Source of the DNA: Patescibacteria group bacterium
GTDB taxonomy: Bacteria; Patescibacteriota; JABMPQ01; JAQVVF01
Reading direction: 5' to 3'
Length of the DNA: 64,000 nt
Assembly (NCBI GenBank): GCA_041662665.1
Contig: JBAZSC010000001.1
Location: 257,511 to 321,510, forward strand
The notes under the pieces are model-generated. The model was not told the origin of the DNA. It did not search any database and saw only the letters and a list, made by a program, of their open reading frames with translations. Shown here piece after piece: positions 11,910-62,329 of the stretch. How positions within the stretch are numbered: position 1 is the stretch's first letter; the number at the start of each line of letters is the position of its first letter. The translations under genes and the position numbers were made by a program.

Positions 11910-11920
11910 TTAAGAAATAA

Positions 11921-12049: not shown

Positions 12050-12060
12050 ATGTTTTATAA

Positions 12061-12134: not shown

Positions 12135-12184
12135 CAAAAAAATAACAAAATTATAAATTAAAAATAACAAAATTTAGAATCGTA

Positions 12185-12211: not shown

Positions 12212-12222
12212 CTAATTCAATA

Positions 12223-12296: not shown

Positions 12297-12360
12297 CCGT
12301 GTCCGCCGATTTATCTGCCGAAGCTTTAGCATAGGCAGAAGCTTTAGCGAAGGCGGAATA
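12297..12360. repeat. family B repeat block (two GAAGCTTTAGC units with GGCGG/CCGCC stems)
   Basis: gtgTCCGCCgatttatctgccGAAGCTTTAGCataggcaGAAGCTTTAGCgaaGGCGGAatac. Confidence 0.6.
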
Positions 12361-12405
12361 CATATATTATATATTAAACAAATAAAAAAGCAAGTTAAGT
12401 ACTTG

Positions 12406-17324: not shown

Positions 17325-17375
17325 AGATTTTAACTTACAATAACGCCAAGCCGTCATAAAAAATAAATTAAAATT

Positions 17376-18239
17376 ATGTCCGAAAAACCACCAATAGAAT
17401 TAAAAGATATCGCCCAAGAATCAGAACCAAAATCTGAAACAGGTTTAGAAATTGTTGAAACTCCAGCATCAAAACAATTTGTTGAACATGCCAATGAAAT
17501 TCATGAAGCAATAGAACATGATAAAAAAATTACATATGGCCAAGTTGCAGATTTAAGAAAAGATTTAGAGCAATTTAAATTTGATGTATGTGGTGAGCAA
17601 ATGACTATTGCAGAAATAAAACAAATACCAGATTTTCAACATAATTATGAAATTTGGAAAAAAATAATGTCTGGAGAATTAATTAGTCGATGGAGCCAAA
17701 ATGAAGAAGATCTTACTTATCTTTTGCCAAAGGTGGCACAAGTTCTAGTTGAAGAATATAATAAAAAAAATGAAGAAACTTTCAAAATACATGATTATGG
17801 CGTTGAAGATCTTATGGACTTAAAGCTAAGCAACATCAAAAGAATCACTCCTGATACAATAAAAAATTTTAAAGATTTTAAAGCTAATATTTTTTTAGAT
17901 GGTTTGACCGAAATATCTGACGAATCAATGCTCGAATTATCAAAATCTTCAAGTTACCTTATTTCATTATCAAGCTTAACGTCTTTATCGGACAAACAAG
18001 CAGAATATTTATCTCAATTCAATGGCGGTAGATTATACTTAAATAGTATAAAATCACTTTCAGATTATGCTGCAAATAAATTTGCGCACAGCAAAGTTAC
18101 GTACGTATTATTAAGAGGTGTAGAAACTATTTCCGATTCTGCTCTTTTGCAGTTAGAAGGAACAAAAGTTGTTCTATCTGATACACAAAAAGAAAGGCTA
18201 AAAAGTTTAAAAGCCAAACAAAATGCTTCAAGATCTTAA
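17376..18239 (+). CDS. paralog family P, member 2
   Basis: About 85% nucleotide identity to member 1 over the first 300 nt. The same LRR-like C-terminal repeats are present. Confidence 0.6.
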   Translation: MSEKPPIELKDIAQESEPKSETGLEIVETPASKQFVEHANEIHEAIEHDKKITYGQVADLRKDLEQFKFDVCGEQMTIAEIKQIPDFQHNYEIWKKIMSGELISRWSQNEEDLTYLLPKVAQVLVEEYNKKNEETFKIHDYGVEDLMDLKLSNIKRITPDTIKNFKDFKANIFLDGLTEISDESMLELSKSSSYLISLSSLTSLSDKQAEYLSQFNGGRLYLNSIKSLSDYAANKFAHSKVTYVLLRGVETISDSALLQLEGTKVVLSDTQKERLKSLKAKQNASRS

Positions 18240-18282
18240 TCTAGAACAAACGCCAAGCCGTCATAAAAAATAAATTAAAACT

Positions 18283-18921
18283 ATGCCAGAACAACCATCG
18301 CAAGTAGAATTAAAAGATATTCAACAAACGAAAGAAACAGAATCTGAAACAGGTTTAGAAATTGTTAAAACTCCTGAATCAGAACAATTTGTTGAACATG
18401 CCAATGAAATTCATGAAGCAATGCAAGCTGATGGGAAAATAACTGCTGGCCAAGTTGCAGATTTAAGAAAAGATTTAGAAGGATTAAAATATGATTTTTA
18501 CGGAGAACAATTATCAATTGCCGAAATCAGGCAAATCCCAGATCTTCAACATAATTTAAAAATTTGGCAAGAAATTTCTAATGGAAAATTTCGTAATTAT
18601 AAGGAATTAACTTATTTAACTCCAGAAATTGCTCAGAAAATTGTTTATCCCGCCTCAATCAAAAGAGTCGGTCACGCACCTATTCCACTTATCGATTTTC
18701 CACCCAGAGATTTATATTTAAACAACTTAAAAACATTATCTGTCGAATCGGCAAGGATATTGTTGAGGAGATTGTCAACAGGTGATCGAATACTTTCTCT
18801 TCAAGGTTTAGTAGATTTCCCTGAAGAAGAATTAGGATTATTAGATGATCCAAATATTCATTTGTCCCGAGAGCTTACATTAAAGTTGATTGAAAAAAAA
18901 GAAGAGATGGGTTTAATTTAA
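18283..18921 (+). CDS. paralog family P, member 3 (shorter, divergent C-terminus)
   Basis: Shares the N-domain with members 1 and 2. The stop lies 3 nt before the helicase ATG. Confidence 0.55.
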   Translation: MPEQPSQVELKDIQQTKETESETGLEIVKTPESEQFVEHANEIHEAMQADGKITAGQVADLRKDLEGLKYDFYGEQLSIAEIRQIPDLQHNLKIWQEISNGKFRNYKELTYLTPEIAQKIVYPASIKRVGHAPIPLIDFPPRDLYLNNLKTLSVESARILLRRLSTGDRILSLQGLVDFPEEELGLLDDPNIHLSRELTLKLIEKKEEMGLI

Positions 18922-21900: not shown

Positions 21901-22902
21901 TTGCCAGATTCAAATTCCAATATTCAAGAAGAAAGAAGACTATTTTATGTAGCAATGACTCGTGCAAAGAAAAGGTTATTTTTTACATCTGCCAATGATT
22001 ATGGCGGAAAAAGAAAAAAGAAAATTTCTAGATTTTTAGTTGAAATTAAAAAACATTTTGATAAAAATTCCGCGTTTTCTGCGTTAGATTCTGCGTGTTT
22101 CCGCGATAACAATATTTTAACGCAGAATAACGCTGAACCTAACGCAGAAAACGCGAAAAAGAAAATAAGATATTCTTTACCAAGTAAATTTTCATACACT
22201 CAGCTTAAAGCATTTGAAACTTGTCCGCATCAATACCGTTTCCGCCATATTATTGGTTTGCCAAGTTCAGGCGCTTCTTCTCAAAGTTATGGAAAAACAA
22301 TGCATGCAGTTTTGCAAAACTTTTTCGCTGATTTGCAAAAAGGAAAAAGTCCGACAGAAAAAGATTTATTAAGTTATTATGACAGTTTTTGGATCGATGA
22401 TTTTTATCAAGACAAAAAGCACGAACAAAAAAGATTTGAAGAAGGCAAGAAAGCTTTGCAAGAATTTTACAAAATAAATAATAAAAATTTAAAAGCGCCG
22501 TTATTTTTAGAAAAAGGCTTTAACCTAAGAATTAAAGACACATGTCTAAAAGGCCAGATTGATCGCATTGATAAATTAGATGATGGCACAGTTGAGATCG
22601 TTGATTATAAAACAGGCAAATTGCCAAAGAATGAAAAGGAAGTAGAGAAAAATGAGCAATTATTGATTTATTCTTATGCCTGCCAAAAAGTATTAAATTT
22701 AAAACCATCAAAACTAAGCCTTTATTTTATTGACCAAAACAAAAAATATTCTGCTAAACAAAATTCAATTAAAGAAGAAAAGATAATTCAAAAAGTCCAA
22801 GAACTAATTGCTAAAATTAAAGAATCAGAATTTATTGCCAAGCCAGGCTTTGCATGCAAATTTTGTGACTATAAGGATATCTGTGAACATGCTAAACATT
22901 GA
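18925..22902 (+). CDS. UvrD/PcrA-type SF1 helicase fused to a C-terminal RecB/Cas4-like PD-(D/E)xK nuclease with Cys cluster; intein-containing
   Basis: Walker A GAGTGKTT, motif III VVGDDDQ|...|SIYKFRGA split by the intein, and TENYRS. The C-terminal CPHQYRF...IDRIDKL...IVDYKTGK...CKFCDYKDICEH is an AddB/Cas4-like nuclease with four Cys. Confidence 0.8.
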   Translation: MLKDLNTEQLQAVKHETGPLLIVAGAGTGKTTAITKKLAYLILEKKVKPENILALTFTEKAAAEMEERVDKLMPYGYTDLWIETFHGFCDRILKDNALDVGLDPNYKLLTSAEQWMFIKSKIFDFDLKYYRPLGNPNSFISELIKHFSRAKDENILPEDYLKFVKKLSASAPAGASADKETIDKMSEVAKSYKKYQELMVAESQMDFGDLIIETLKLFKKRKNILKKYQKQFQYILVDEFQDTNFAQYQLLQLLAPPQNNLTVVGDDDQCLPPDSKIETKTGIKKINKIKKGELVLSAVGKGHTSYYQVNKVIKNKKNARFLNISTKNGNKITITDNHKMFCFVPLKSDKKYYYVYLMEKRNLGYRLGITNDLATRLRLERGADRIIGIKSFKSEIEARYYETLLSLKYQIPLTCFCFRPGVFMNKELLEKLYQEFDTYKNAERLAKDLKIDLSAHHFALDAVNRGSSLRIKIIIEQCYRKHVSKVRRGILFGPKISHSVIVETSDKKTIETLKKNGFNLRKARKNGFRFKYTDQDFQKVGQIALKLEKITGGILETRFEVGALNIKHRKALMMPAKNLLVGHFLPVLKKDNKEIIYDEIIDIKEKNKTSNVYDLEIEKTHNFIADNIVVHNSIYKFRGASVSNILQFQKDFPKSKKIVLTENYRSVQPILDLAYNSIQLNNPDRLEAKYKINKKLKSQIKSKSDLAINHIHKATYEQEAVDVIKNIINLKQKDKSTWSDFAILVRANSSAEIFINLLSSKKIPYQFIASRGLYSRPEIMDLISYLRVVANFYDNINFYRVLSLPIFKLNSEDIIRLVAYSRRKNLSIFDLACTPSRIVGLNKDSVEKFKVVVELVKKHAKLSLEKNAAEVLLDFLKTSGYLKYLQTNKDLEAEKKILNISLFFKRIQELQENKKLTVPEFIDQLDLMIEAGEDPSPIQLDEGPDSIKILTIHSSKGLEFDNVFVVNMVEGKFPSRNRKDLIELPEKLIKEQLPDSNSNIQEERRLFYVAMTRAKKRLFFTSANDYGGKRKKKISRFLVEIKKHFDKNSAFSALDSACFRDNNILTQNNAEPNAENAKKKIRYSLPSKFSYTQLKAFETCPHQYRFRHIIGLPSSGASSQSYGKTMHAVLQNFFADLQKGKSPTEKDLLSYYDSFWIDDFYQDKKHEQKRFEEGKKALQEFYKINNKNLKAPLFLEKGFNLRIKDTCLKGQIDRIDKLDDGTVEIVDYKTGKLPKNEKEVEKNEQLLIYSYACQKVLNLKPSKLSLYFIDQNKKYSAKQNSIKEEKIIQKVQELIAKIKESEFIAKPGFACKFCDYKDICEHAKH
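19426..19462 (+). repeat. family B nested-hairpin repeat inserted in-frame in the helicase CDS
   Basis: TCCGCCtccGCTCCtgcgGGAGCttcGGCGGAcaaag encodes SASAPAGASADKE. It is architecturally identical to the intergenic 27905-27941 CCCGCCttcGCTCCtcgtcatttGGAGCtacGGCGGG. Confidence 0.55.
19732..20820 (+). mobile_element. intein (363 aa) inserted in helicase motif III, with putative homing-endonuclease domain
   Basis: Begins with Cys (CLPPDSKIETKTG) right after VVGDDDQ and ends VVHN before S of SIYKFRGA, so excision restores the canonical VGDDDQSIYKFRGA. The internal YYYVYLMEKRNLGYRLGITNDLATRL is GIY-YIG-like. Confidence 0.75.
22068..22158 (+). repeat. CTGCGTT-unit palindromic repeat (family A) inserted in-frame in the helicase CDS
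   Basis: ccgCGTTttCTGCGTTagattCTGCGTgtttccgcg...AACGCAGAAtaacgctgaacctAACGCAGAAAACGcg. It translates in-frame as SAFSALDSACFRDNNILTQNNAEPNAENAKK, lying between the helicase and nuclease parts. Confidence 0.65.
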
Positions 22903-27978: not shown

Positions 27979-28066
27979 TATTAGAAAAAGTATTCGCTGT
28001 ATTCGAAAATTTATTAGAGTGAGACCAAAAAAAAGACCGACGTAAATCGGTCAAAAAAGGTGCAAC

Positions 28067-29689
28067 TTATTCTGTCACTGCAATTGATGGAATTTCATCA
28101 GATCCGCGATCTGAAGTCATCTGGAAAAAGATCATCATTGCGAGCGATTGCTTGTCAGAGGTCAGGCTGTGGTAGAATTCACGCCAAGCCTTGCCTTGCT
28201 GTGAAGCATTTCGCATCTCAATGATTTCTTCAATCTGTGTTTGCAATTCTTGCTTTCCGGAAAGCATCTGATTGATGAACGTATCACGACGCTCTTCAAT
28301 CAAATCTTCGACTACAGAAGCAAGATAATCAAAATCCACAACATTCGAATCAACATGAAGACAAAAATCTCGATCGTCAGTATAGACCTCGAGCTCAATC
28401 TCGGGATAATGAGCTCTGATCCTAGCGACGATTTCTGCAGTATCCAAAAGGTCAACGCTCTGGAAGCCGGTGTTATAGATCACGAGCTGATTACGCTCTT
28501 TGTGACCAGTAACAACGAAATCCACGCGCTTTTTTCCAATTGGATACAAATCATTTGGTTCAATGTAAGGAGGCTTGCTGAAAAAGAATCTTGCAGTCTG
28601 TCCATTTACTCTGGACTGACTGAAATCTCCAACAAAATAGCTGATGCCATAACGGTTTACATAGCGACCCTTCTGCGATTCATTCAAGTTATAGCCAAAC
28701 ATTTCTCGAACTGAAAAGAAAGCTTCGATGCAGTAAAAAGCAGCTTGAACAGATTCTGCATAGAAGGCATGATCTCTTGAGCCGCCTGGTGTTACGCGAT
28801 AATTCATCCCTCGCATCAGGTTAGTGATGCCATAGAGATTATTCATCTCGTAATGAGGCCTGCCATCAAAAGGTCTGCCGTTGTCTTTTGCATCAATGAA
28901 ATCAGTCATGATTTGGATATGCTCGAAATTCGGAAGCTTAGTCAAGCGATCATTGTGAGCTCTGAATACCAGTCCAGTTGCAGACCAAGGCTGGTAGTAG
29001 AAAACTCTTCTGCCCTTCTGAAATTCTTCAGTACTGTAAGGGATATATTCATCTCCAATGCCCTTGCAGATAACAAGAGTCTGATCATCATATTCAGGGA
29101 AATGTCCATCATCATCTACGAATTCAACAAATACTTTGTCACGATCGAAAGAGAAAAGTTTGAAACTTTCGATCATTTTGTTCTTTACTGCAGACAGTCG
29201 CTTTGTTCTCAATGAGTTATCATTCAAAACAAAAACAACTCTCTTTGCATCTTCATTTGTTACTGTCTTAAGATTGGCATGATGATCATAATGAAACACT
29301 CTTTGTCCAGCCTTGAACTTTTCAGCAGTCCATGGGTCGAACTTGCATCCTGTATCAAGGTTAATGATCATTACGCGCGATCTTTTGACCGTGTTTCGAG
29401 CTACTGAAATTTCTGACTTTCCATCTGATTCTTCTTCATCATCAACATATGAAAGAAAACGTCCGAGTCCTGCATGGAAAAATCCATATTCAGTGTATGT
29501 CTCTCCGTTTTTCACAAACAACAAAATAATTCTAGCATCCATATTCGACAAACCAAAAGCTCGGCAAAACATGTCAAATGCACCTGCAACATCTCGATCT
29601 GGTGAGACATGTCCAACGAGAAGAATGAAATCCAAATGCAAATAATAAAACAAGTCTTTCAGTGCCATCTCGTCCTCCTTTGGATTCAA
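28067..29689 (-). CDS. DHH-family phosphoesterase-like protein with long uncharacterised C-terminal region; GC-elevated gene
   Basis: N-terminal motifs HLDFILLVGHVSPDRDVAGAFDM (DHH motif I, with PDRD in place of PDGD), VMIINLD and VFHYDHHAN (DHH motif III). A possible degenerate DHHA1 GGSRDH is present. GC is about 45%. AAAGGAGGACGAG lies immediately before the ATG. Confidence 0.45.
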   Translation of the reverse strand: MNPKEDEMALKDLFYYLHLDFILLVGHVSPDRDVAGAFDMFCRAFGLSNMDARIILLFVKNGETYTEYGFFHAGLGRFLSYVDDEEESDGKSEISVARNTVKRSRVMIINLDTGCKFDPWTAEKFKAGQRVFHYDHHANLKTVTNEDAKRVVFVLNDNSLRTKRLSAVKNKMIESFKLFSFDRDKVFVEFVDDDGHFPEYDDQTLVICKGIGDEYIPYSTEEFQKGRRVFYYQPWSATGLVFRAHNDRLTKLPNFEHIQIMTDFIDAKDNGRPFDGRPHYEMNNLYGITNLMRGMNYRVTPGGSRDHAFYAESVQAAFYCIEAFFSVREMFGYNLNESQKGRYVNRYGISYFVGDFSQSRVNGQTARFFFSKPPYIEPNDLYPIGKKRVDFVVTGHKERNQLVIYNTGFQSVDLLDTAEIVARIRAHYPEIELEVYTDDRDFCLHVDSNVVDFDYLASVVEDLIEERRDTFINQMLSGKQELQTQIEEIIEMRNASQQGKAWREFYHSLTSDKQSLAMMIFFQMTSDRGSDEIPSIAVTE

Positions 29690-29905
29690 AAATTGAGGGT
29701 ACGGTCCTGTCCCTTCGAACGTATTATATTAGCATATCTTTTTTATTTTGTCAATGAAATGCTGATGATTTGTCTCAAATAAGCCAAAATGAGAATTTAA
29801 TATTAATAATATTTATGCACAATTTGAGAGACCATTCTTGCAGAATTTATATATATTTGCTATACTTAAATTGTTTAGAAAACACATATTTTTTGTATTA
29901 AATTT

Positions 29906-31966
29906 ATGGCTATAAAGAAAGACACCAAAAAAAACGCTCCTAAAAATCCATCAGAAAGCTATGGAGCTTCTTCAATTACAGTTTTAAAAGGCCTTGATCC
30001 TGTCCGCAAACGTCCAGGTATGTATATTGGCGGTACTGGCATTGAAGGCCTTCATCATTTAATTTGGGAAGTTGTAGATAACTCAATTGATGAAGCTATG
30101 GCTGGATATTGTAAAAATATTAAAGTTACTTTATTCGAAGGTAACAAAGTTACAGTTTATGATGATGGCCGTGGTATTCCAGTCGAAATTCACAAAGCTA
30201 CCAAGAAATCAACACTTGAAACTGTCTTGACTGTTTTGCACGCTGGTGGAAAATTCGGTGGTGGCGGTTATAAAGTTTCTGGTGGCTTGCATGGTGTTGG
30301 TGTTTCTGTTGTTAATGCATTATCACAATATTTGAAAGCTGAAGTTACAAGAGATGGTTATCTTTGGGAGCAAGAATATAAACGAGGCAAGGCACAAGGA
30401 AAAATTAAAAAAGTAAAAAAAGCTTCTGGCACTGGCACAGCAATTACTTTTGATCCAGATCCAGAAATTTTTCCAAAGATAGAATTTGATTGGAAAACAA
30501 TTGTTACTCATTTGCGCCAACAAGCTTATTTAACAAAAGGCGTCAAAATTTCCATCACTGATGAAAGAAAAGGACATGAATTAGCGCCAAATATTCCACG
30601 CGCTCTGACTTTTTATTTTGAAGGTGGAATTTTATCATATGTAAAATTTTTAAATCGCACTGAAAAAGTAGTTCATCCAAATCCTTTTTATATTGAAAAA
30701 GCAAAAGGCGATTGTTTGGTAGAAGTAGCGTTGCAATATACTGAAGAGATCAAAGGTATTGAAATGACTTTCGCCAATAATATTTATACTCCAGAAGGTG
30801 GTACTCATCTGATGGGTTTCAGAACTGCTCTAACTCGTGTTATTAATGATTATGCTCGAAAAAATGGTTACCTCAAAGAAAAAGAAGACAATTTAACTGG
30901 TGATGATGTTCGTGAAGGACAGACAGCAGTTGTTTCTCTAAAACTTCCAGAGCCTCAATTTGAAGGCCAAACAAAAGCAAAATTAGGCAATTCCGAAATT
31001 AGGCCAATTGTTAGTTCAATTGTTTATGAATATTTCTCTCAATTCTTAGAAGAGCATCCGCAAGATGCGCGAGCTATTATGGCAAAAACTTTGCTAGCTT
31101 GCAAAGCCAGACTCGCTGCTAAAGCTGCCAAAGAAACAGTAATTAGAAAAGGCATTATGGAAGGTCTGACTTTGCCAGGAAAATTAGCCGATTGTTCATC
31201 AAGAAAACCAGAAGAATCTGAATTATACATTGTTGAGGGCGACTCCGCTGGTGGTTCTGCCAAACAAGGTCGTGATCGAAATTTCCAAGCCATTCTTCCT
31301 CTTCGCGGTAAAATTTTAAATGTCGAAAGAGCAAGAATTGACAAAATGCTAGGTTCAAAAGAAATCAAAGCTTTGATTATTGCTATGGGTATGGGAGTTG
31401 GTGAAGAAAAAGAAATTGAAAAAATGCGTTATCACAGAATAATTATCATGACTGATGCTGATGTTGATGGCGCTCACATCAGAACTTTGCTATTAACTTT
31501 TTTCTATCGCTATTATGCAGAAATAATCGAAAAAGGCTATCTTTATATTGCTCAACCGCCATTATATCGAGTTGAAAAGAATAAAAAAGTCGATTATGCC
31601 TATACTGATCAAGATAAAGAAAGAATCTTAAAAGAAATTGAAAAAACATCTGTTGCCAAAAAAACTAAAAAAAGCAAAATAGAAAAAGCTGGATTTACTG
31701 TTAAAGAATTGGAAACAGGTGAAGAAAATGGTGAAGAAAAAGTCGCTGGCGTTAATATTCAGCGTTACAAAGGTTTGGGTGAAATGAATCCTGAACAATT
31801 ATGGGAAACAACAATGGATCCAAAAAATCGCGTTATGCTTCAAGTTAAAGTAGAGGACGCAGCAAAAGCTGATGAAACTTTTGATATTTTGATGGGCAAT
31901 GAAGTTGAGCCTCGCAAACGTTTTATTCAAACTCATGCTGCCAAAGTTAAAAATTTGGATATCTAA
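29906..31966 (+). CDS. gyrB: DNA gyrase subunit B (type IIA topoisomerase ATPase subunit)
   Basis: GHKL ATPase motifs LHHLIWEVVDNSIDEAMAG and GGLHGVGVSVVNALS. Toprim EGDSAGG and PLRGKILNVE, then C-terminal QRYKGLGEM. Confidence 0.88.
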   Translation: MAIKKDTKKNAPKNPSESYGASSITVLKGLDPVRKRPGMYIGGTGIEGLHHLIWEVVDNSIDEAMAGYCKNIKVTLFEGNKVTVYDDGRGIPVEIHKATKKSTLETVLTVLHAGGKFGGGGYKVSGGLHGVGVSVVNALSQYLKAEVTRDGYLWEQEYKRGKAQGKIKKVKKASGTGTAITFDPDPEIFPKIEFDWKTIVTHLRQQAYLTKGVKISITDERKGHELAPNIPRALTFYFEGGILSYVKFLNRTEKVVHPNPFYIEKAKGDCLVEVALQYTEEIKGIEMTFANNIYTPEGGTHLMGFRTALTRVINDYARKNGYLKEKEDNLTGDDVREGQTAVVSLKLPEPQFEGQTKAKLGNSEIRPIVSSIVYEYFSQFLEEHPQDARAIMAKTLLACKARLAAKAAKETVIRKGIMEGLTLPGKLADCSSRKPEESELYIVEGDSAGGSAKQGRDRNFQAILPLRGKILNVERARIDKMLGSKEIKALIIAMGMGVGEEKEIEKMRYHRIIIMTDADVDGAHIRTLLLTFFYRYYAEIIEKGYLYIAQPPLYRVEKNKKVDYAYTDQDKERILKEIEKTSVAKKTKKSKIEKAGFTVKELETGEENGEEKVAGVNIQRYKGLGEMNPEQLWETTMDPKNRVMLQVKVEDAAKADETFDILMGNEVEPRKRFIQTHAAKVKNLDI

Positions 31967-47181: not shown

Positions 47182-48018
47182 ATGGCAAACGGAGTACCTC
47201 CAACAAATTTACCAACAGACGATCAAAACAAAACAACAAATGAACCACCAAAAAGAGAATTCAAACCATCTCAAGACAGAGTGCAGAATTTTCGTCAGCA
47301 AATGGGCAGAATAAATCCAGATCCAGGAATGCCAAATCGTCCAACGCCTCCAGCTCCACCAAAGCCACCAACACCGCCAGCACCACGTCCACAAGCACCA
47401 AGACCACAGCCTCCTATGCCTCCAAAGTCTCAGCCTCCAGTTCCTCAATTTAAACCAAAAGCGCCTACACCTGCACCGATGCCTCCAAAACCTCAACCTC
47501 AACCTCAGCCGATGACCAAACCTCAAGCTCCGATGCAACCAAAATCACCAGAAATGCCACAACATGCTGATGGACCATCAATTGAGCAAGTAGAGAAAAA
47601 GAATTTAGTCGTTAAAATTATAATTTTAATTCTTGTTGTTGCTGCTTTAGCTGGATTAGTTTTAGGTGGAGTTTTCGCCTACAACAAATGGCTTAATCCA
47701 TCTTCAAAAACAAACACTAATATTGTAGTTAATACTAATCAGCAAGTTGTACCGGAAAATGTGATCATAAAAGAGCAGATTAAAATTAAAGATACTGATG
47801 GTGATACAATGACTGATGAATGGGAAATAAAATATGGATTAGATCCAAACGATCCAGCAGATGCTCAAAAAGATAATGATAAAGACAAGCTAATAAATAT
47901 TGAAGAATTTAAATACAAAACAAATCCAAATAGTCAAGATACAGATGGTGACACATTCAGCGATTATGTTGAGATCCAAAAAGGTTTTAATCCAAATGGA
48001 CAAGGCAAACTTAAATAA
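47182..48018 (+). CDS. membrane-anchored Pro-rich surface protein with Ca-binding thrombospondin-type-3-like repeats
   Basis: PTPPAPPKPPTPPAPRPQAPRPQPPMPP tract, one TM helix, then DTDGDTMTDEWE..GLDPNDPAD..DNDKD and DTDGDTFSDYVE (DxDxDG repeats). Confidence 0.5.
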   Translation: MANGVPPTNLPTDDQNKTTNEPPKREFKPSQDRVQNFRQQMGRINPDPGMPNRPTPPAPPKPPTPPAPRPQAPRPQPPMPPKSQPPVPQFKPKAPTPAPMPPKPQPQPQPMTKPQAPMQPKSPEMPQHADGPSIEQVEKKNLVVKIIILILVVAALAGLVLGGVFAYNKWLNPSSKTNTNIVVNTNQQVVPENVIIKEQIKIKDTDGDTMTDEWEIKYGLDPNDPADAQKDNDKDKLINIEEFKYKTNPNSQDTDGDTFSDYVEIQKGFNPNGQGKLK

Positions 48019-48023
48019 TATAT

Positions 48024-48551
48024 ATGCAAAATTCTGGATTTCACAAATCAGCACCACCAATCAATATTCCTACTAATCAAAAACCAAATCTAGAATTTAA
48101 ATATCTGGAAACTGATAACAACAAGAAGCATCCCATTCTTGTTGTTTTACTTATCTTATTCTTCATTGCAATTTTAGTCGTTGCTTTCATTATTGCTTAT
48201 GATTTTTTTCAAAAAAATGAGCAAGCAAATTTAACTGCAGATTTATCAAATCAAGATATTGATGGTGATGGATTAACAACAATTGAGGAGCTAAAAAATG
48301 ACACTGATCAAAATCAATATGATTCAGATTTTGACAAAATGTCGGACGGCTGGGAAGTCAGAAACAATCTCAATCCAAAAGATTATCTTGATGCTACAAA
48401 AGATAATGATCAAGATGGATTAACAAATTTACAAGAATTGCAATATAATTCAAATCCAAATAATAAAGATACTGATAATGATGGCGTAAAAGACGGTGAT
48501 GAAGTTGCAAATAATTTAAACCCAAATGGTGATGGTAAAATCATTAAATAA
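48024..48551 (+). CDS. membrane-anchored protein with thrombospondin-type-3-like DxDxDG repeats (paralog of previous)
   Basis: TM helix ILVVLLILFFIAILVVAFIIAY, then DIDGDGLTTIEELKND, DNDQDGLTNLQELQYN and DTDNDGVKDGDE. Confidence 0.5.
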   Translation: MQNSGFHKSAPPINIPTNQKPNLEFKYLETDNNKKHPILVVLLILFFIAILVVAFIIAYDFFQKNEQANLTADLSNQDIDGDGLTTIEELKNDTDQNQYDSDFDKMSDGWEVRNNLNPKDYLDATKDNDQDGLTNLQELQYNSNPNNKDTDNDGVKDGDEVANNLNPNGDGKIIK

Positions 48552-49923
48552 AAATAAATTTTACTTTTTTGAAGCTATTTTAATTTTAGGATTAGCAATA
48601 TTTTTGCCAAAAATTTCTTTTGCAAAAATTCCATTCAATATTTTAGTTAGTACTGGTTTTGGAGTTAATCCACAATTGCACGAATTTTCAAATACTGGAA
48701 AAATTTCTAGCTATCTATCTGATCTCAAAAATTTACCAAGCAACAATAAAGGCATTAATTTAGCTTCCGGCGATGTTGATGGCGATGCTGTTGATGAAAT
48801 TATTGTTTCACAACGAGCCGGCGGAATTCCGCAAGTTTTTGTTTTTGAAAAAAATGGCAAATTAAAAATGGTTTTCAAACCTTATCCCTCAAATTCACAA
48901 ACTGGAATTAATATTGCAACAGGTGACGTTGATAAAGATGGCAAAGATGAAATAGTTACTGTTCCAGCTGAAGGCGGAGTTGCTTTAGTCAAAATTTATC
49001 GTTTTAACAAAAAACAAGAAATTATTAAAGAATTTAAAGCCTTTAGCAATGATAGCTGTGGAGCATCAGTTGCTGCTGGAGATATTGATCATGATGATAA
49101 AGATGAAATAATTGTTGGCAATGGTCCGAAATGTTCGCCAAAAATTCGTGTTTATGAATCAAATGGCGCAAGATTGCCTTTAGAATTTTATGCTTTTAAT
49201 CCAAATTTTCTAGGCGGAATAGATGTCGCAGCTGGCGATGTTGATAAAGATGGAATTGATGAAATCGGTACTTGCCAATCGCAACAACAAGCTTGGTGCA
49301 AGATTTATAAATACAAAAATAATACGCCTTTAATTGGATCCTGGCTAGCTTATAATAATTTTGAAGTTGGTGCCAGAATTGATTTCGCTGATTTAGATTC
49401 TGATGGACGAGACGAGGTTCTTACTGGAACAGCCCATGGCACTCCGCAAGTTCGTTTTTTTGAAGCATCTGGTTCGCCAATTAATATAAATTTTTATCCA
49501 TTTCCAAAAAATTATAATTCAGGAATTGATGTTGCGCCATTTTTTGCCAATAAAAAATCTCAAGAAAAAGTTATTTATGTTGAAGATGGAGATAGCGTTT
49601 ATCTAACAGATGGCCGAGAAATGCGCTATATTGGAGTCAATACACCAGAAGTTGGCAAGAAATTTTATGAAGAAGCAATTAATTTAAATAAAAGATTAGT
49701 CGAAAATAAAAATGTAATTTTAGAATATGATGTTGATCGCGAAGACCATATCGGCAGAGATTTAGCCTATGTTCATGTCGGCAAGAAATTCATCAATAAA
49801 ATTTTAGTTTCAAAAGGTTTAGCTAAAGTAGACACTTTCAAGCCAAATGTTAAATATAGATCAGTATTTAAAAAAGCCCAAGCAAGGGCTCAAAGAATGC
49901 ATCGAGGGATGTGGAGGAGGTGA
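48526..49923 (+). CDS. secreted FG-GAP/VCBS-like repeat protein fused to C-terminal staphylococcal-nuclease (SNase/thermonuclease) domain
   Basis: Signal peptide, then repeated G(D)VD.DG.DEI(IV) units (six or more). The C-terminal DGDSVYLTDGREMRYIGVNTPE...GRDLAYVHV...ARAQRMHRGMW matches the SNase fold. Confidence 0.6.
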   Translation: MVMVKSLNKNKFYFFEAILILGLAIFLPKISFAKIPFNILVSTGFGVNPQLHEFSNTGKISSYLSDLKNLPSNNKGINLASGDVDGDAVDEIIVSQRAGGIPQVFVFEKNGKLKMVFKPYPSNSQTGINIATGDVDKDGKDEIVTVPAEGGVALVKIYRFNKKQEIIKEFKAFSNDSCGASVAAGDIDHDDKDEIIVGNGPKCSPKIRVYESNGARLPLEFYAFNPNFLGGIDVAAGDVDKDGIDEIGTCQSQQQAWCKIYKYKNNTPLIGSWLAYNNFEVGARIDFADLDSDGRDEVLTGTAHGTPQVRFFEASGSPININFYPFPKNYNSGIDVAPFFANKKSQEKVIYVEDGDSVYLTDGREMRYIGVNTPEVGKKFYEEAINLNKRLVENKNVILEYDVDREDHIGRDLAYVHVGKKFINKILVSKGLAKVDTFKPNVKYRSVFKKAQARAQRMHRGMWRR

Positions 49924-54912: not shown

Positions 54913-55485
54913 ATGAGACCAGAACAACCAATTCAAGAAAATCTAGCTGATATTAAAGAGCCTTCAAAGCAAACAGAAGGCGGTCTTGAAATTGCAAAAA
55001 CGCCTGAATCAAAAACAGTTGTAGATTTAGCCAATGAATTTCATGAAGCAATACAAAATGATTCACCAATTACTTATGGGAAAGTTGAAGATTTTAGAGA
55101 AGCTTTAGGAAAAATGAAATTTAATATTGATGGAGAATTAATGACAATAGAGGAAGCCAGAAAAATTCCCAATCTAAAAGAAAACCTAAAAATAATGAAA
55201 GAAATTGAAGCTGGAAATTTCAATAATATTTACAAGCTTACTTATTTAACAGATAGAATCGCCGAATCTCTAAGTCGTTCTCAAAATGACCTTCGCTTAA
55301 ATCGCCTGACATCATTATCTGATCTATCTGCTGCATCTCTAAGTCATCATCAAGGTAATCTTTATCTTAATAGTCTCAACTCCATCTCAAACAAAGCCGC
55401 AAAATTTTTAAGCCATCATCGAGGCAACGTTTACGCGAATGATGAAATTACACAGCAAATAAACAAATTTAAAGTTAGAAAATAA
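54913..55485 (+). CDS. paralog family P, member 4
   Basis: N-domain RPEQPIQENLADIKEPSKQTEGGLEIAKTPES. Its first 85 nt are 100% identical to the start of member 5. LRR-like tail LTSLSDLSAASLSHHQGNLYLNSLNSISNKAAKFL. Confidence 0.55.
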   Translation: MRPEQPIQENLADIKEPSKQTEGGLEIAKTPESKTVVDLANEFHEAIQNDSPITYGKVEDFREALGKMKFNIDGELMTIEEARKIPNLKENLKIMKEIEAGNFNNIYKLTYLTDRIAESLSRSQNDLRLNRLTSLSDLSAASLSHHQGNLYLNSLNSISNKAAKFLSHHRGNVYANDEITQQINKFKVRK

Positions 55486-56651
55486 TGCCAAATCCAGAAC
55501 AACCAATTCAAGAAAATCTAGCTGATATTAAAGAGCCTTCAAAGCAAACAGAAGGCGGTCTTGAAATTGCCAAAACAGAAGCTTCAGAAAGAGTTGTTAA
55601 AACTGCCGATCAAATTCATAATGCAATGGAAGCAAATGAACCAGTCTATAAAAAAACAGTTGATGAACTAAGAGAGGCATTATCAAAGCTTGAGTATAAT
55701 TTTTATGGCGAAAAAATGACGTTGCAAGAGATAAAAGAGATTCAAGAACAAAATAAAGAAGCTTGGGAAATGATTACAACTGGAAGAAATTTCAATGTTT
55801 GGCTGCTAAATCGCATCCTAACATTTCTGACTCCTGATGTTGCTAAACGCTTAGTAGAAAGAATGAAGCCAAATCAAAATTCATTATTATATCTTGATAG
55901 CTTAAAAAGTATCTCTACAAAAGTCGCCCAAGAATTAATAAAACATGAAGGTCCATTATATCTAGATGGAGTAGAAGAAATGTCTCTTGATGTCTTAAAA
56001 AGCTTATGTCAAAAAGAACACAAAACAGGATTAAGTCTAGGACTAAAATCTATATCTAAAGAGCAAGCCGAAGTTATCAAAAATTACAAAGGTCCAATTA
56101 GCTTAACAAAGCTTACAGAAATGGATTCTGCTTCTGCGCATGAACTAGGCGAATTACAAGGTTATTCATTAAGATTAGGTTTAGAAAGCTTGCCTCCAGA
56201 TGTCGCGCAAGAATTAGCAAATTTTAAAAGCGATGAAAGCAATTCTTACAAAAAATTATCTTTTATTTCATTGCAATATATTTCTCCAGAATCTGCCCAA
56301 AAATTTGATTCTTACGTTCAAGAATTAAATTTTGTCACAATGGAAAAAATAGATTTAGAAACAGCAAAAGGATTTAGAAATTTTTCCGGCACATTGGAAT
56401 TTGGTGATTTTATAGAATTTGACGATGAAACAGCCAAAGCTCTTTCAGAAAGCGATGCAGATTTAGGATTGAATATTTTAAAAGAAATTTCTCTACAAGC
56501 TTTACGATATTTTGCCAGCCGACAGAAAAAAGTTTATTTAACTGGCTTAGAAGCAGAGAATCTAACACCAGAACATTTGCGCATTATTGCCAATTCCGAA
56601 AATATTGTAGTTGATAATGAAATCAAAGAATTAGCAGCCAAACATAAATAA
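55485..56651 (+). CDS. paralog family P, member 5 (longest LRR-like repeat region)
   Basis: TAATG stop/start overlap with member 4. It carries more than 8 repeats of L.L..L.SIS...A..L....G.L.L. Confidence 0.55.
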   Translation: MPNPEQPIQENLADIKEPSKQTEGGLEIAKTEASERVVKTADQIHNAMEANEPVYKKTVDELREALSKLEYNFYGEKMTLQEIKEIQEQNKEAWEMITTGRNFNVWLLNRILTFLTPDVAKRLVERMKPNQNSLLYLDSLKSISTKVAQELIKHEGPLYLDGVEEMSLDVLKSLCQKEHKTGLSLGLKSISKEQAEVIKNYKGPISLTKLTEMDSASAHELGELQGYSLRLGLESLPPDVAQELANFKSDESNSYKKLSFISLQYISPESAQKFDSYVQELNFVTMEKIDLETAKGFRNFSGTLEFGDFIEFDDETAKALSESDADLGLNILKEISLQALRYFASRQKKVYLTGLEAENLTPEHLRIIANSENIVVDNEIKELAAKHK

Positions 56652-56677
56652 TTTTATATATTAAATTTTTTAAAACT

Positions 56678-58567
56678 ATGGCAACAGAACAAGGACCAAA
56701 ACCAGAACAAAAAGAAATTGATCGAAACAAAGAATTAACGCCAGATGAATTAAGACAAGGATTAAGCGATCTTAAAACAGAATTTTGCACAAAATTAGGC
56801 GAGGAGCTTGGCATGCAACTAACTTTGCCAGCTGGAACAAAAATTGGTGAATTAGATCTTAGTGGTAAAACTTTAGCTGAACTTTTTGATAGCTTAATGC
56901 GACCATTGGAAACTTATGAGCCTCCAATAATCAGAGAAGAACAACAAGAAGTGCAAGAAAAACCAACCGAAATTCCAGAATGGCTAATTGGCCATGAAGA
57001 TTTAATCTGGAAGGGAACACATGATAATCCAAGATGGCAAGCTAAAGCAACACAATCTGGCAGTGAAGTCAGTGTTACATACAAAAGACGCAATAAAGAA
57101 TACAAACCAGGAAAAACAAAAGAAGAACAAGGAAAGGCATTAGAACCAGTTGAAAATACTTTTACACTAAAAGAATGGAAAGTCGCCAAACAAATTTTTG
57201 ATGGCTATGATGATTTAATGAAGCGTTATGAACAAGGTGATAGAGAAGCAAGAAAAGAATTCTTAGCAATTTTACGAGAAGAAAATAAATTTAGACGAGG
57301 TAGTGGTGAAACGCCAGCAATTTTAGCGCAAAAAGTTGAAGATGCTGTTAATACAACTGCTGAAACAACCAGAGGTTTTAGGCGCGATTCAATAGATCAA
57401 GAAGCATTAACTCAAAAAATTGCGGAATTATTAAGTCAATTAGTCGTTTTAAATGCTACCAGAGGCGAAGGTAAAGAACGTGTACCTGTCGTAAAAAAAA
57501 GCATTAAAGAATTTCCAACGTTTATATTAGGACTAGAAAAAATAGCAAAAGCTTTAGATACTCAACTAAAAAGCAATAAAGGTCTGACATTAATAATTGG
57601 CGAGGCTGGAACTGGAAAAAATGAGGCTGCAAGTCATTTAGCTGGAAATACAAATCGACCATATTTTTGGTTTCCTTGCGCTCGCGGTATGGAGTCAATT
57701 GAATTAGTTGTCCATTATGAATTTGATTCTAAAGAAGGTACAAAAAAATTCTTAACAGATCTTGCAGAAGGTGTCCAAACTCCAGGCGCAATTGTTATGA
57801 TTGATGAAGCCAATGCTTTGAAACAAGAAGTTCAAGCCATGTTTCATGGTTTAGGCGATGAAAACAGAAGCTTGAATTATGACGGCGTCCATATTCCTGT
57901 TGCTGAAGGCGTTGTTATAATTATTGCTGTCAATCCTGCAACTTATGGTTCAGCTGGAAATATTGGCCAAGCATTACTTTCTAGAACTAGAGGTCAAGCA
58001 GTGGTTATGGAATATCCAGCTTTGAGAAAAGGTGAATTTCAGAAAAATAAAAATAAATGGTCAGATGCTGTTTTGGCGCAAAAAGAAGGAGAAGATAATA
58101 CTTTGCGTGATTATGCTTGTGATGAAGTCCAAGTTACTCGCAGTCAATTTAATGAGCTAGCAGAACTTTCAGATTCAGAATTTGCTTTGCTTTGGGATGT
58201 CGTAATTAATGAAACAACTCAAGGTCAAAAAGTTACAGATCTAGAAAAAGATGAAAAATTAAAATATTTATTAAGTGAAAATCTAAAAGAGCATACTACT
58301 AAATTGCTAAGAGATCTTCGCGATATTGAAAGAATTGCTGATACTTGGCGAAAATATTATGAAAAAAGGGCAGGCGGAATGGATATCATTGGTGTCAGCA
58401 TGCGTGATACAATTGCAGTTGCCAAAGAATACAAGGACACCGGCGATGTTCGCAAGGCTTATCTAGAAGTTATGGATGATTTTAGAAAGAATCCAATCGA
58501 AGGATTAGATGTAACTTTAAAAGCTTTGGAAGAATTGATTGAAAAGACTTTGGGAGAACAAGCTTAA
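56678..58567 (+). CDS. MoxR/AAA_5-type AAA+ ATPase with about 290-aa N-terminal extension
   Basis: Walker A GEAGTGKN, Walker B IVMIDEAN and sensor-2-like LLSRTRGQAVVMEYP. It pairs with a downstream vWA protein. Confidence 0.6.
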   Translation: MATEQGPKPEQKEIDRNKELTPDELRQGLSDLKTEFCTKLGEELGMQLTLPAGTKIGELDLSGKTLAELFDSLMRPLETYEPPIIREEQQEVQEKPTEIPEWLIGHEDLIWKGTHDNPRWQAKATQSGSEVSVTYKRRNKEYKPGKTKEEQGKALEPVENTFTLKEWKVAKQIFDGYDDLMKRYEQGDREARKEFLAILREENKFRRGSGETPAILAQKVEDAVNTTAETTRGFRRDSIDQEALTQKIAELLSQLVVLNATRGEGKERVPVVKKSIKEFPTFILGLEKIAKALDTQLKSNKGLTLIIGEAGTGKNEAASHLAGNTNRPYFWFPCARGMESIELVVHYEFDSKEGTKKFLTDLAEGVQTPGAIVMIDEANALKQEVQAMFHGLGDENRSLNYDGVHIPVAEGVVIIIAVNPATYGSAGNIGQALLSRTRGQAVVMEYPALRKGEFQKNKNKWSDAVLAQKEGEDNTLRDYACDEVQVTRSQFNELAELSDSEFALLWDVVINETTQGQKVTDLEKDEKLKYLLSENLKEHTTKLLRDLRDIERIADTWRKYYEKRAGGMDIIGVSMRDTIAVAKEYKDTGDVRKAYLEVMDDFRKNPIEGLDVTLKALEELIEKTLGEQA

Positions 58568-58569
58568 AT

Positions 58570-58652
58570 CAGTTTCAAAGTTATAAAGTTATAAAGTTCT
58601 TAAAGCTATGACGACTTTATGAACTTTATTAACTTTACAAACTTTATAACTT
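58570..58652. repeat. AT-rich palindrome (AAGTTATAAAGTT / AACTTTATAACTT arms)
   Basis: cagtttcaaagttataaagttataaagttcttaaagctatgacgactttatgaactttattaactttacaaactttataacttaat. Confidence 0.6.
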
Positions 58653-58659
58653 AATCTTT

Positions 58660-60591
58660 ATGTCATATTTAAACCCATTTGAAAGAGTACCACAATTTCA
58701 AGAGCTTGGCGATCCTGATTTATTTCGCCAAGAAATAGCAGAGCGTGCCAAAACAGCAACTCCAGAAGAAACAGAAAGATTATTATCAAATCTTGAAAGA
58801 TATTCTCAAGCTCCAGACCGAAATATTGAGCTTTATACAGATCCAAATTTAGATACTTTTTGTTGCGCCGAAGTGCCAGCACAAAAAGTTATACAGTCAG
58901 GAGAAATAGTTGATGATCCTGCAAAAAAGACATATTTAATTGGCGTACCATTTATTTATGCAGCCGGCAAAGCACCAGAAAAATTTTTACGTGGTGAAAT
59001 TTTACATGAACGTGGACACGCTGAATTCTCGCAATTTAGTATGTTTGAAAGATTAAGAAAATTAGCAAGGCAAGAAGGGTATGATGAAGGAGAAATAATG
59101 AGTGGAATAAATTGTGCTGAAGATCCAAGAATGGAGAGACTAGTTGGCGGACCATTGCATCCAAATGAACGAGAGCAAATGTTTGAAAAAAATCGTCAGT
59201 TAATTATTCCAAGTATTGCCAAGGGTTTAGATGAAATGCAACCAGCTGAACAATTTAAATTTATTTTGAAACTAGAAGGTCTATGGAATATTTATGGTAA
59301 AGATTTAAAGGATACTCCAAAGCCTTGGTCAATTGACAAATTACATCCAGATGTTGCCAAAGAATTTAAAGCAGTTGAATCTTCTTTGAGGAAAATAACT
59401 GGCGATGCAACAAATCCAGCAATGAAAGTCATGGCATTAGTTGAAAAAACTTTTGTTGATAATATTTGGCAAGCTCAAAAAAGATTACTTGATAAATATC
59501 CGCCAAAAAAAGAAGAAGGAAAAACAGGCAAAGGCCAAGGAAAAGGACAGCCAGGACAAGGCGAGCCTCAACCAGGCGAGCCAACAGAGCCGTTAGATCC
59601 AACTAATACTGACAATTGGCCACCAGAATTAAAAAAAATTATTGAAAAATTCAAGAATGAACATCAAAAGAAGCTAGAACAAAAAGCTGATCAAGCAAAA
59701 GCTGATGCAGAAAAAGGTAAAGAAAATGCTGAAAATTTAGCACAAGAAAAACATGAGCTTTTGAAAACTCGCGATCAATTTGATACTCCAGAAATGCGTG
59801 AAAGATATAATACTTTAAGCGCAGAAGTTAGTCCAATTACCGGACAATTAAAAAGATCATTTAAAAGATTTGTCCCAAAAGTTACAGAACCAGGACTTGA
59901 ATGGGGCAGAAAAGGCGGACGTTATTCAGAACGAAGAAGAATCATGCGAGCAGGATCAGGTCATGAAAAGCCAATGGGCAAAAGAGAGCATCCAGAAGAA
60001 ACAGCTCTTGCTTTACAATTATTAGTCGATGTTAGCGGTTCAATGTACGGACAAAATAAAGAAAGAATTAAAAATGCGATCAAAGCTTGCATTGCAATTA
60101 GTGAAGCTGCAAAAGACAATAATATCGTAATTGAGATTTTAGCTAATGATGAAAAAAATGTTTCAAATGATATTAGATATCAGATCAAAGGTTTTAATGA
60201 GCCTTATGATGGCAGAACAAAATCAAGAATAGTACAAATGATGGAAGCTTTTGGCGGAGATAATAAAGATGCCGACGCAATCATGGCAGCAGTTCCAAGA
60301 ATACGTAAAAGAATTCAAACATTGCGCGCTGAAGCAGATCGAGTTGGCTCTTTGATTATTGATATAACTGATAGCACAACTCAGAGTCCTGATACAAGGG
60401 ATGCTGTTGAACAAGCAAGAAAATTTAGTCCAATGGAGGGAACAGCGATTACTCCAGAAGGTGAGATCCCAGGAATGGTTAAATTTCATTTTGGACCGCA
60501 GAGCATTATTCCAAGATCGCTTAATGAATTTCCAGACGCAATTCAGCAAATTCTAGAGCGACATGTTAGAAGATTGAGACCAAGACAATAA
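58660..60591 (+). CDS. vWA-domain (MIDAS) protein with N-terminal HExxH zincin-like motif and central low-complexity acidic linker (CobT/NorD-like partner of AAA+)
   Basis: C-terminal LLVDVSGSMYG (DxSxS MIDAS). N-terminal ILHERGHAEF (HExxH) with a downstream E. Central GKGQGKGQPGQGEPQPGEPTEP followed by a K/E-rich coiled-coil. Confidence 0.55.
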   Translation: MSYLNPFERVPQFQELGDPDLFRQEIAERAKTATPEETERLLSNLERYSQAPDRNIELYTDPNLDTFCCAEVPAQKVIQSGEIVDDPAKKTYLIGVPFIYAAGKAPEKFLRGEILHERGHAEFSQFSMFERLRKLARQEGYDEGEIMSGINCAEDPRMERLVGGPLHPNEREQMFEKNRQLIIPSIAKGLDEMQPAEQFKFILKLEGLWNIYGKDLKDTPKPWSIDKLHPDVAKEFKAVESSLRKITGDATNPAMKVMALVEKTFVDNIWQAQKRLLDKYPPKKEEGKTGKGQGKGQPGQGEPQPGEPTEPLDPTNTDNWPPELKKIIEKFKNEHQKKLEQKADQAKADAEKGKENAENLAQEKHELLKTRDQFDTPEMRERYNTLSAEVSPITGQLKRSFKRFVPKVTEPGLEWGRKGGRYSERRRIMRAGSGHEKPMGKREHPEETALALQLLVDVSGSMYGQNKERIKNAIKACIAISEAAKDNNIVIEILANDEKNVSNDIRYQIKGFNEPYDGRTKSRIVQMMEAFGGDNKDADAIMAAVPRIRKRIQTLRAEADRVGSLIIDITDSTTQSPDTRDAVEQARKFSPMEGTAITPEGEIPGMVKFHFGPQSIIPRSLNEFPDAIQQILERHVRRLRPRQ

Positions 60592-61834: not shown

Positions 61835-62329
61835 CTAAAAATTTAAAAATCTAAAAAAATTAAAAACGTTTACGCGACGGCGTCTTATTTTATATTTATG
61901 ATTTTTGACTTTAGATTTGACAACACTTGGCCAATTTTGTTTCAACCAGATTTTTGATTTCACAAAATATTCTTCTAAACCGCGTTTTGCCATTTCACTT
62001 CGTATAATTCCGCCTTTATGCGGATGGCGAAAAGACTGAGCAAGTGGGGAATTGAATCCATGCGCATAATGAACAAGTTCATGTATAATTGTGCCATCTA
62101 CAACAAATTGTGGAATTTTTTCATCTTTGAAATAAGAAGTCAAAGTAATAACAGTCTGATTATTTTTAGGATTTAATTTAATAGATCCCAACCTTGCTTT
62201 TGCTTTTCTTCCAAACAAAATAACAATCTCATTTTTAATCGGCACATCAGAAAAATGATTTTGTAAAAAAAATAAAAGTCTTTGTTTTAACCAATTATTA
62301 TCACGCATAATCGAGTTAACTAGTAACAA
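61835..62329 (-). CDS. DUF45/YgjP-family predicted metal-dependent hydrolase (HExxH)
   Basis: KARLGSIKLNPKNNQTVITL...IIHELVHYAHGFNS parallels YgjP (RWGSC....I.LN..L...P..L.DYVVVHELCHL..NHS). Confidence 0.55.
   Translation of the reverse strand: MLLVNSIMRDNNWLKQRLLFFLQNHFSDVPIKNEIVILFGRKAKARLGSIKLNPKNNQTVITLTSYFKDEKIPQFVVDGTIIHELVHYAHGFNSPLAQSFRHPHKGGIIRSEMAKRGLEEYFVKSKIWLKQNWPSVVKSKVKNHKYKIRRRRVNVFNFFRFLNF

Follow-up and report, generated by a model that had tools for sequence, protein, structure and literature searches.

A CobST-like ATPase/adaptor module associated with arrays of leucine-rich-repeat-like proteins in Patescibacteria

The cluster described here spans positions 54913-60591 of a 64 kb stretch of DNA (the window; AT-rich, ~31% GC) from the genome of a Patescibacteria bacterium, a group belonging to the ultra-small bacteria of the Candidate Phyla Radiation (CPR). 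Four co-directional open reading frames (ORFs) fill the region on the + strand, and encode two members of a family of proteins with leucine-rich-repeat (LRR)-like units, called P proteins hereafter, an AAA+ ATPase of the MoxR class, and a protein ending with a von Willebrand factor A (VWA) domain, called the adaptor. Arrays of P genes are a conserved third component of the ATPase/adaptor system. By analogy with known motor-adaptor pairs, the cluster may specify a CobST-like, three-component CPR system, which would remodel, and probably cleave, the P proteins or their cargo. We assign to this reading a probability of about one half.

The ORF of P-family member 4 (P4, 190 amino acids, aa) spans 54913-55485, that of member 5 (P5, 388 aa) 55485-56651. 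Stop and start codons overlap at 55483-55487 as TAATG, the A being the base shared by the two genes. The ATPase ORF (56678-58567, 629 aa) starts after a gap of 26 nt, the adaptor ORF (58660-60591, 643 aa) after a further gap of 92 nt. A terminator scan detected no terminator-like site within the cluster, promoter and terminator counts being at the level of shuffled DNA. Both the four ORFs and the TAATG overlap are as described in an earlier annotation made from the letters of the window, without database searches (the sequence-only reading).

Related loci were collected by exact-protein look-ups, from 185,579 species genomes that were scanned (12 loci) and from a metagenome scan (20 loci), and were scored with hidden Markov models (HMMs) for the ATPase, P and adaptor families; ~35 loci were left upon removal of duplicates. 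The sequence-only reading had tied the ATPase/VWA pair to LRR-like paralogs and proposed that neighbourhood conservation be checked across CPR genomes. The tie is stronger than was noted there: at ~25 of the ~35 loci, P genes, one to eight or more in number, directly flank the ATPase and VWA genes or separate the two, with all of them on the same strand. Linked loci come from Peribacteria, Paceibacterota, 'Saccharibacteria' and other metagenome-assembled genomes (MAGs). In nearly all loci the VWA gene is adjacent to the ATPase gene, or is separated from it by P genes only. The order AAA-P(n)-VWA is the commonest one; P(n)-AAA-VWA is found in the window and in its closest relative (L009). In the gene list of one contig the VWA gene has 12 unannotated genes upstream, coding for proteins of 195-455 aa, and 4 downstream, all of them probable P genes. 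Arrays of weakly P-like paralogs occupy the same position at the divergent loci L030, L033 and L038 (E=1e-4 to 1e-7, small database). What surrounds the cluster varies between genomes (mur genes, pyruvate kinase, ychF, pheS, thrS), which indicates that the three families travel together. A conserved link of an ATPase/adaptor pair to arrays of repeat proteins seems to be undescribed.

Two loci show variations. At one of them (L041, 1-8998), P genes and the adaptor gene on the + strand are followed by two P genes and the ATPase gene on the - strand, and the cluster hence tolerates internal inversion. In the closest relative, a MAG labelled Saccharibacteria sharing 79-81% identity, the adaptor gene (9962-11914) is split into two ORFs at ~10354-10358; pseudogenization, an error of assembly or a recoded stop could account for the split.

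Four regions can be distinguished in the adaptor. The first is a zincin domain (M48/gluzincin-like, CobT_N-type; aa 1-283, 58660-59508), which carries the motif HERGH (aa 116-120, 59005-59019) and, further downstream, NCAEDPRMER (59110-59139). A disordered linker rich in Gly, Pro and Glu follows (aa 284-311, 59509-59592), with predicted local distance difference test (pLDDT) values below 50 over aa 285-308, and varies in length in homologs. The third region (59593-59994), a candidate 'shaft/finger', comprises long helices (aa 322-404), then a pre-VWA segment (aa 405-445) that is conserved and poorly modelled. The VWA domain occupies the rest (59995-60591), and features a MIDAS (metal ion-dependent adhesion site) formed by D457, S459, S461 (60028-60045), N535 and D571; aa 457-462 read DVSGSM. 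All four regions are encoded by the + strand. The motifs agree with the sequence-only reading, according to which the 643-aa protein carries a MIDAS VWA, a Gly/Pro/Glu linker and an N-terminal HERGH motif.

Homologs of the adaptor (46 proteins, 39-100% identity) are all from CPR sources. Residues E113, H116, E117, G119 and H120 (HExGH) are invariant in the 23 CPR homologs aligned, as are N151, E154, D155, R157, M158, E159 and R160 (NxxEDPRMER). The same is true for the MIDAS residues D457, S459, G460, S461 and M462, and for N535. Distant relatives, 14-23% identical to the CPR protein, retain H116, E117, H120, N151, E154 and D155, along with D457, S459, S461 and D571 of the MIDAS. Conservation of the His and Glu residues of HExxH in orthologs, a point left by the sequence-only reading for verification, therefore holds well outside the close family.

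The AlphaFold2 model of the adaptor has an overall pLDDT of 85 (91.9 for the N-domain alone), with disordered stretches at aa 285-308 and 410-441. In the N-domain model eight helices come after three strands, the topology also reported for CobT_N. HERGH lies on the helix 107-123, E154 and D155 on the helix 143-162, and the predicted fold matches those of zincin peptidases. HExxH sits in a real zincin-fold domain, which is apparently intact. Peptidase activity of the adaptor is favoured, because the motif is strictly conserved in very distant relatives, and is apparently lost in the non-proteolytic CobT.

HMM searches of the kind that the sequence-only reading had suggested gave mixed results: AAA_5 was found in the ATPase, CobT and peptidase models did not match the window adaptor, and its VWA domain alone fell below the Pfam cut-off (E=0.016). 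VWA_2, however, matches 20 of the 23 adaptor homologs. In Foldseek searches the VWA region hit the MIDAS domain of Rea1/MDN1 as top match (8e-9, ~290 columns) and NorD (1e-7). The VWA assignment of the window protein rests on the family matches and on the structure model. Neither CobT nor CobT_C of Pfam matches the window adaptor; CobT_C is matched weakly by 7 of the 23 close homologs (best 2.4e-4). When the N-domain profile was compared with 1.84 billion representatives, 19 close clusters were retrieved, followed by a tail of proteins of 600-870 aa, carrying CobT_C/VWA Pfam domains above cut-off. In a search of the PDB, a profile built from CPR adaptors only returned low-complexity coiled-coil matches, plus CobT at E=1.2. 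A broader profile (A4), including distant relatives and the window protein, matched CobT (9uka_G) at 1.3e-33, NorD at 5e-18, and Midasin at 3e-10; the match to CobT 9uka_G includes the pre-VWA region. As judged from CobT and NorD, the pre-VWA segment is a candidate for the shaft or finger that would enter the AAA+ pore.

The 629-aa protein is an AAA+ ATPase of the MoxR class, as deduced from profile matches and motifs. The AAA_5 core (aa 305-436, 57590-57985) matches the Pfam model at E=1.4e-14 (54.7 bits, gathering cut-off 22), and PF07728 is present in 56 of 56 full-length homologs. A profile built from 22 homologs matches the solved structures of CbbQ (1.2e-11) and NorQ (5e-11); CobS was not matched by this profile in the PDB search. 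Walker A is GEAGTGKN (aa 308-315, 57599-57622), Walker B is IVMIDEAN (aa 372-379, 57791-57814), and NPATYGSAGN...LLSRTRGQ is found at 57932-57997; conservation in the family extends to Walker B and the NP...SR(T) region. The core is followed by a helical C-terminal region (aa 437-629, + strand, within 56678-58567) and preceded by an N-extension of 290 aa (56678-57547, + strand), kept at full length in 56 homologs, in which W102, W120, R137, E166, Y177 and other residues are invariant. No similarity of the N-extension to anything known was found. The sequence-only reading had recognized the AAA_5/MoxR-like core, the Walker motifs and the long N-terminal region, all confirmed by Pfam, motif positions and homolog alignment. 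It had also seen an echo of the P-family N-terminus in the first residues of the ATPase. The idea of a shared N-terminus was discarded, blastp giving no match and hhalign a probability below 1%, that is, no signal.

Five P genes are found in the window, all on the + strand. P4 and P5 lie in the cluster; the other three (16506-17324, 17376-18239, 18283-18921) form a first array 36 kb from the ATPase/adaptor module. The five genes are clear paralogs (blastp, E=1e-20 to 1e-36). A sixth member encoded by the same genome (P0139, 281 aa, locus tag WC663_02415) is, judged by its tag, ~150 genes away from the module, hence P genes are scattered as well as clustered. P proteins are made up by an N-terminal module of ~115 aa and by a run of units of 23-24 residues, with the pattern L.L..L..I(T/S)D.qA..La.f.G; P4 has about two units of 24 aa, P5 about ten of 23-24 aa. 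The autocorrelation of the repeats peaks at 24, 48 and 72, and the best lag in P5 is 23. Tandem repeats of 20-30 aa with an LxxLxLxx(N/C/L)xL-type core define LRRs, and such repeats are found in the P family. Their consensus reads like that of short LRRs of the CC/GALA type; this is a reading of the consensus and not a profile match. None of the 12 P members scanned matches Pfam LRR families. No significant match was obtained for P proteins or for the N-domain of the adaptor in Pfam, NCBIfam or PADLOC scans, and P proteins show neither hydrophobic or transmembrane segments nor a signal-peptide-like N-terminus. A 719-aa relative (P0141) carries EF-hand Pfam domains, and hints at further domain fusions in this repeat family.

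P4 and P5 share an exact repeat of 77 nt at their 5' ends (54919-54995 and 55494-55570, both on the + strand), beginning 6 and 9 nt past the respective ATGs. The repeat, far above chance expectation, extends to 83 of 84 nt if one mismatch is allowed; the 85 identical nucleotides counted by the sequence-only reading were not recovered. Nucleotide identity of the two genes, calculated per ten codons, is 93, 100 and 93%, then 57, 63, 53% and lower. It is therefore 93-100% across the first 30 codons, and falls abruptly to ~55% thereafter. A boundary so sharp points to a gene-conversion tract, an origin also proposed in the sequence-only reading, or to a chimeric duplication, and is not what a uniform recent duplication typically leaves. 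In the paralogs at 16506-18921, N-modules are 80-97% identical at the nucleotide level over ~90 codons, and ~50% identical beyond. The identity profiles of both arrays indicate that the N-terminal module has been homogenised within the genome, while the C-terminal part diverged.

CobS/CobT (PDB 9uka) similarly pair an AAA_5/MoxR-class ATPase with an adaptor of ~640 aa. The CobT N-domain is M48C-like and has a three-stranded sheet, after which come eight helices; ~90 disordered residues link it to a C-domain made up by two helices and a 'shaft', then by a VWA with MIDAS residues D422, S424, S426, N518 and D546 (preprint 10.64898/2026.07.21.739949). In the CobSTN complex the M48C-like domain is an interaction surface, binding both the CobS lid and CobN (preprint 10.64898/2026.07.21.739949). 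The order of parts is the same in CobT and in the CPR adaptor: M48-like N-domain, disordered linker (30-90 aa), helices and pre-VWA segment, VWA with a D-S-S-N-D MIDAS. The two systems differ in several respects. CobT reads RGLGDSMALR where the CPR adaptor has RGEILHERGHA, in an alignment that is weak and non-significant, a lead and not a proof. The CPR ATPase carries the 290-aa N-extension, and in CPR loci LRR-like proteins, in arrays, are the third partner. Neither the window nor the ~35 related loci revealed a gene of CobN size or CobN-like sequence (whole genomes were not searched). The adaptor has the CobT architecture, but is not a cobaltochelatase ortholog, since CobN was found at no locus, the catalytic motif is kept, and the third partner belongs to a different family. 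Of the clear CobS/CobT orthology, which the sequence-only reading had named as a ground for refutation, only the architecture stands.

Other known pairs resemble parts of the module. Among solved structures, the ATPase core matches CbbQ and NorQ best, and NorD is close to the VWA model along with the Rea1/MDN1 MIDAS domain; the assignment of the two genes to the MoxR-type AAA+/VWA modules, already made in the sequence-only reading, is in line with these matches. A finger-in-pore mechanism is known for NorQ/NorD and CbbQ/CbbO, the NorD finger sitting in the NorQ pore. Their clients, nitric oxide reductase (NOR) and Rubisco, are absent from the CPR loci examined, and we know of no zincin motif reported for NorD or CbbO. 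Rea1/Midasin, which acts on clients with ubiquitin-like domains (Ytm1, Rsa4), shares with the adaptor, in addition to the VWA similarity, an acidic or disordered linker before the MIDAS, and binds a constant N-terminal domain of its clients. Unlike the CPR system, Midasin, a eukaryotic protein, unites six AAA modules in one giant polypeptide and lacks a peptidase domain. Pfam DUF2201_N/DUF2201, which we take to be a combination of a metallopeptidase and a VWA-like domain possibly related to the adaptor, gave no match, and nothing relevant was found in the literature on DUF2201 or on a CobS/CobT-phage-metallopeptidase connection.

The proposed mechanism combines these features. The ATPase would form a hexamer, by analogy with CobSTN and NorQD, with the pre-VWA segment of the adaptor inserted into the pore of the ring and the zincin domain docked on the ATPase lid. 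A P protein would take the place of CobN or NOR, with the zincin domain and the MIDAS face holding it from either side, probably by its constant N-module. ATP-driven twisting would then remodel the P protein, and the intact zincin site may cleave either the P protein itself, for maturation or turnover, or a protein bound on the LRR surface. Gene conversion would keep neighbouring N-modules alike, the 77-nt identity included, as repeat regions diversify. P proteins are candidates for the client or third subunit because a uniform, constant N-module fits a shared docking element.

Several observations weigh against this reading. Three loci (L008, L019, L037) carry the pair without detectable P genes; conversely, the first array at 16.5-18.9 kb and the sixth P gene sit apart from the ATPase/adaptor pair. 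The alignment of P N-modules reveals no invariant acidic residue, no cleavage motif, and no invariant column at all. In the Walker A of the ATPase, Asn replaces the canonical Ser/Thr at the Mg2+-coordinating position, a substitution that nearly all of the 22 aligned homologs share; one has GKT. As to the adaptor, neither the window protein nor its close homologs match any peptidase family in Pfam or NCBIfam at E<=1, and the third zinc ligand would have to be a Glu on the downstream helix, for which E154 is the candidate.

The lack of a match to Pfam peptidase models is also in keeping with a pure remodeller or assembly chaperone, in which the zincin-fold domain only docks, proteolysis does not occur, and P proteins are folded, assembled or metal-loaded. 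MoxR-VWA pairs are classically chaperones, and the M48C-like domain serves as an interaction surface in CobSTN. Yet neither NxxED nor HExGH, with its catalytic Glu, varies even among relatives of only 14-23% identity, a constancy not readily expected of a docking surface, and the CobT of cobaltochelatase, where the domain does dock, appears from the weak alignment mentioned to have lost the motif. We regard a chaperone devoid of proteolysis as unlikely.

A conflict system directed against phages or hosts looks improbable too. P proteins would sense invaders, the MoxR-VWA pair would be a nucleoside triphosphate (NTP)-dependent switch, and the zincin domain the effector. The vWA-MoxR-VMAP ternary conflict systems combine a MoxR ATPase, a vWA protein and a variable third partner, and are occasionally associated with metallopeptidase effectors (Kaur et al. 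2020, PMC7159879). The analogy extends to the variable number of P genes, to the combination of constant N-module and variable repeats, to a genomic location which is patchy and shifts between genomes, and to the rarity of the family, found at 12 loci among the 185,579 species genomes. The VWA of the CPR adaptor, however, is of the CobT type, and not of the type found in ternary systems, and an LRR-like third component was not described by Kaur et al. 2020 (PMC7159879). No PADLOC model recognized any of the four cluster proteins, a VMAP-like component is absent, and bpMoxR did not match the window ATPase. The cluster is moreover flanked by housekeeping genes, and the retention of the family across deep CPR lineages, at 40-80% identity, speaks for a core function under purifying selection.

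A more speculative variant, which we hold to be rather doubtful, sees in P proteins substrate receptors that can be exchanged for one another, in the manner of F-box/LRR proteins. The homogenised N-modules would plug into the CobST-like AAA+/zincin core, and each of the diversifying LRR surfaces would pick a different target.

Metallopeptidase-VWA proteins paired to ATPases are found in phages and mobile elements, and the adaptor is not the first of its kind. Iyer et al. 2021 (PMC7824862) described in group 2.2 jumbo phages a MoxR-vWA pair, the vWA being fused to an N-terminal metallopeptidase, and proposed that it processes structural proteins during assembly (PMC7824862). The 'CobT' of Roseobacter phage CRP-810 (gp06/gp07 pair) keeps HEAGH...NALED and has a ~600-aa AAA_5 neighbour. 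In a 37-kb record from a Kistimonas MAG (L020, 5939-13908), genes for a 598-aa AAA_5 protein and a 719-aa CobT/CobT_C protein adjoin a phage-type integrase gene; the 719-aa protein has an intact HETGH...VEDPRMERL and a very long Asp/Gly-rich linker, and the two genes probably are a protease-adaptor pair of a mobile element. With the jumbo-phage pair, the phage and mobile 'CobT' proteins and the M48C-like N-domain of CobT itself at hand, the notion of the sequence-only reading that a VWA partner with a metalloprotease motif is undescribed does not hold. The fusion was known already; the neighbourhood of P arrays is the element that looks new.

Phage and mobile 'CobS/CobT' pairs share with the CPR module the two-gene arrangement, an adaptor with HExGH...NxxED and VWA, and an ATPase of ~600 aa. 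Pairwise similarity of the adaptors is very low, though (VWA region E=4e-10, N-domain E=0.004), and the ~600-aa ATPases of the phage and of Kistimonas can be aligned to the CPR ATPase only in the P-loop region. The phage loci have no P-family arrays, and the CPR family is chromosomal. Two weak matches to the VWA region were all that tblastn of the adaptor gave against 50,697 phage records. Derivation of the cluster from a phage or mobile-element morphogenesis module, P proteins being former structural proteins, is a possibility to which we give very little credit. Phage and mobile 'CobT' paired with ATPases annotated as 'CobS' are the closest adaptor relatives outside the CPR, and a role in virion assembly has been proposed for the phage pair (PMC7824862). 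No relative of the CPR family was found, however, in IMG/VR viral contigs, no integrase or other phage genes flank the window cluster or the CPR loci, and the cluster is conserved vertically across CPR lineages.

An ordinary metal-insertion pair (CobS/CobT, NorQ/NorD or CbbQ/CbbO) with its client encoded elsewhere and P genes as unrelated neighbours, to which the CobT-like architecture, the MIDAS residues and the resemblance of the ATPase to CbbQ and NorQ would conform, can almost be discounted, as no CobN, NOR or Rubisco gene turned up in the ~35 loci examined (only 64 kb of this genome were covered), 290 extra N-terminal residues are conserved in the ATPase, HExxH is retained, and P genes are adjacent or intercalated beyond chance in most loci across lineages.

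The cluster is flanked upstream, on the opposite strand, by thrS and a Mur-ligase/FolC-like gene, and downstream by dnaE. Other features of the window may be mentioned. Directly downstream of the first P array, a gene on the + strand (18925-22902) encodes a 1325-aa PcrA/UvrD-like helicase with an intein at ~aa 270-633 and a C-terminal nuclease domain of the Cas4/AddB type. The region 47182-49923 (+ strand) encodes two proline-rich proteins with bacterial TSP3 calcium-binding repeats and a transmembrane segment, and next to them a protein of 465 aa, likely a surface or secreted nuclease, in which FG-GAP repeats are joined to a staphylococcal-nuclease domain. At 61835-62329, on the - strand, a basic protein of 164 aa features a HELVH motif (IIHELVHYAHG) and has a SprT- or zincin-like look; no Pfam match was found at E<=0.01. 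The GC content rises to 0.42 at 12000-14000, next to a tRNA cluster (11975-12296), and to 0.39 at 28000-30000. Overlapping, spurious-looking ORFs lie on both strands of these two stretches, which are probably rRNA genes.

MoxR-VWA pairs are widespread, and to our knowledge clients have been identified for few of them only (NOR, Rubisco, CobN, LdcI). Here comparative genomics singles out a family that is a candidate for client or partner, so that the target of the pair becomes testable. The catalytic HExxH is retained in a large branch of CobT-like proteins that are not chelatase subunits, found in CPR bacteria, phages and mobile elements, and routinely mis-annotated as cobaltochelatase subunits. 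Its retention in this branch points to an ATP-coupled protease adaptor as the ancestor or the sister of CobT. If P proteins were interchangeable receptors, the cluster would encode a programmable ATP-dependent protease or remodeller in genome-reduced CPR bacteria, possibly acting against host or phage proteins. Very few regulatory systems are known in CPR organisms, and an array of LRR-like proteins, conserved and expanding, with a dedicated ATPase is a plausible player in their interaction with hosts or in the control of their proteome.

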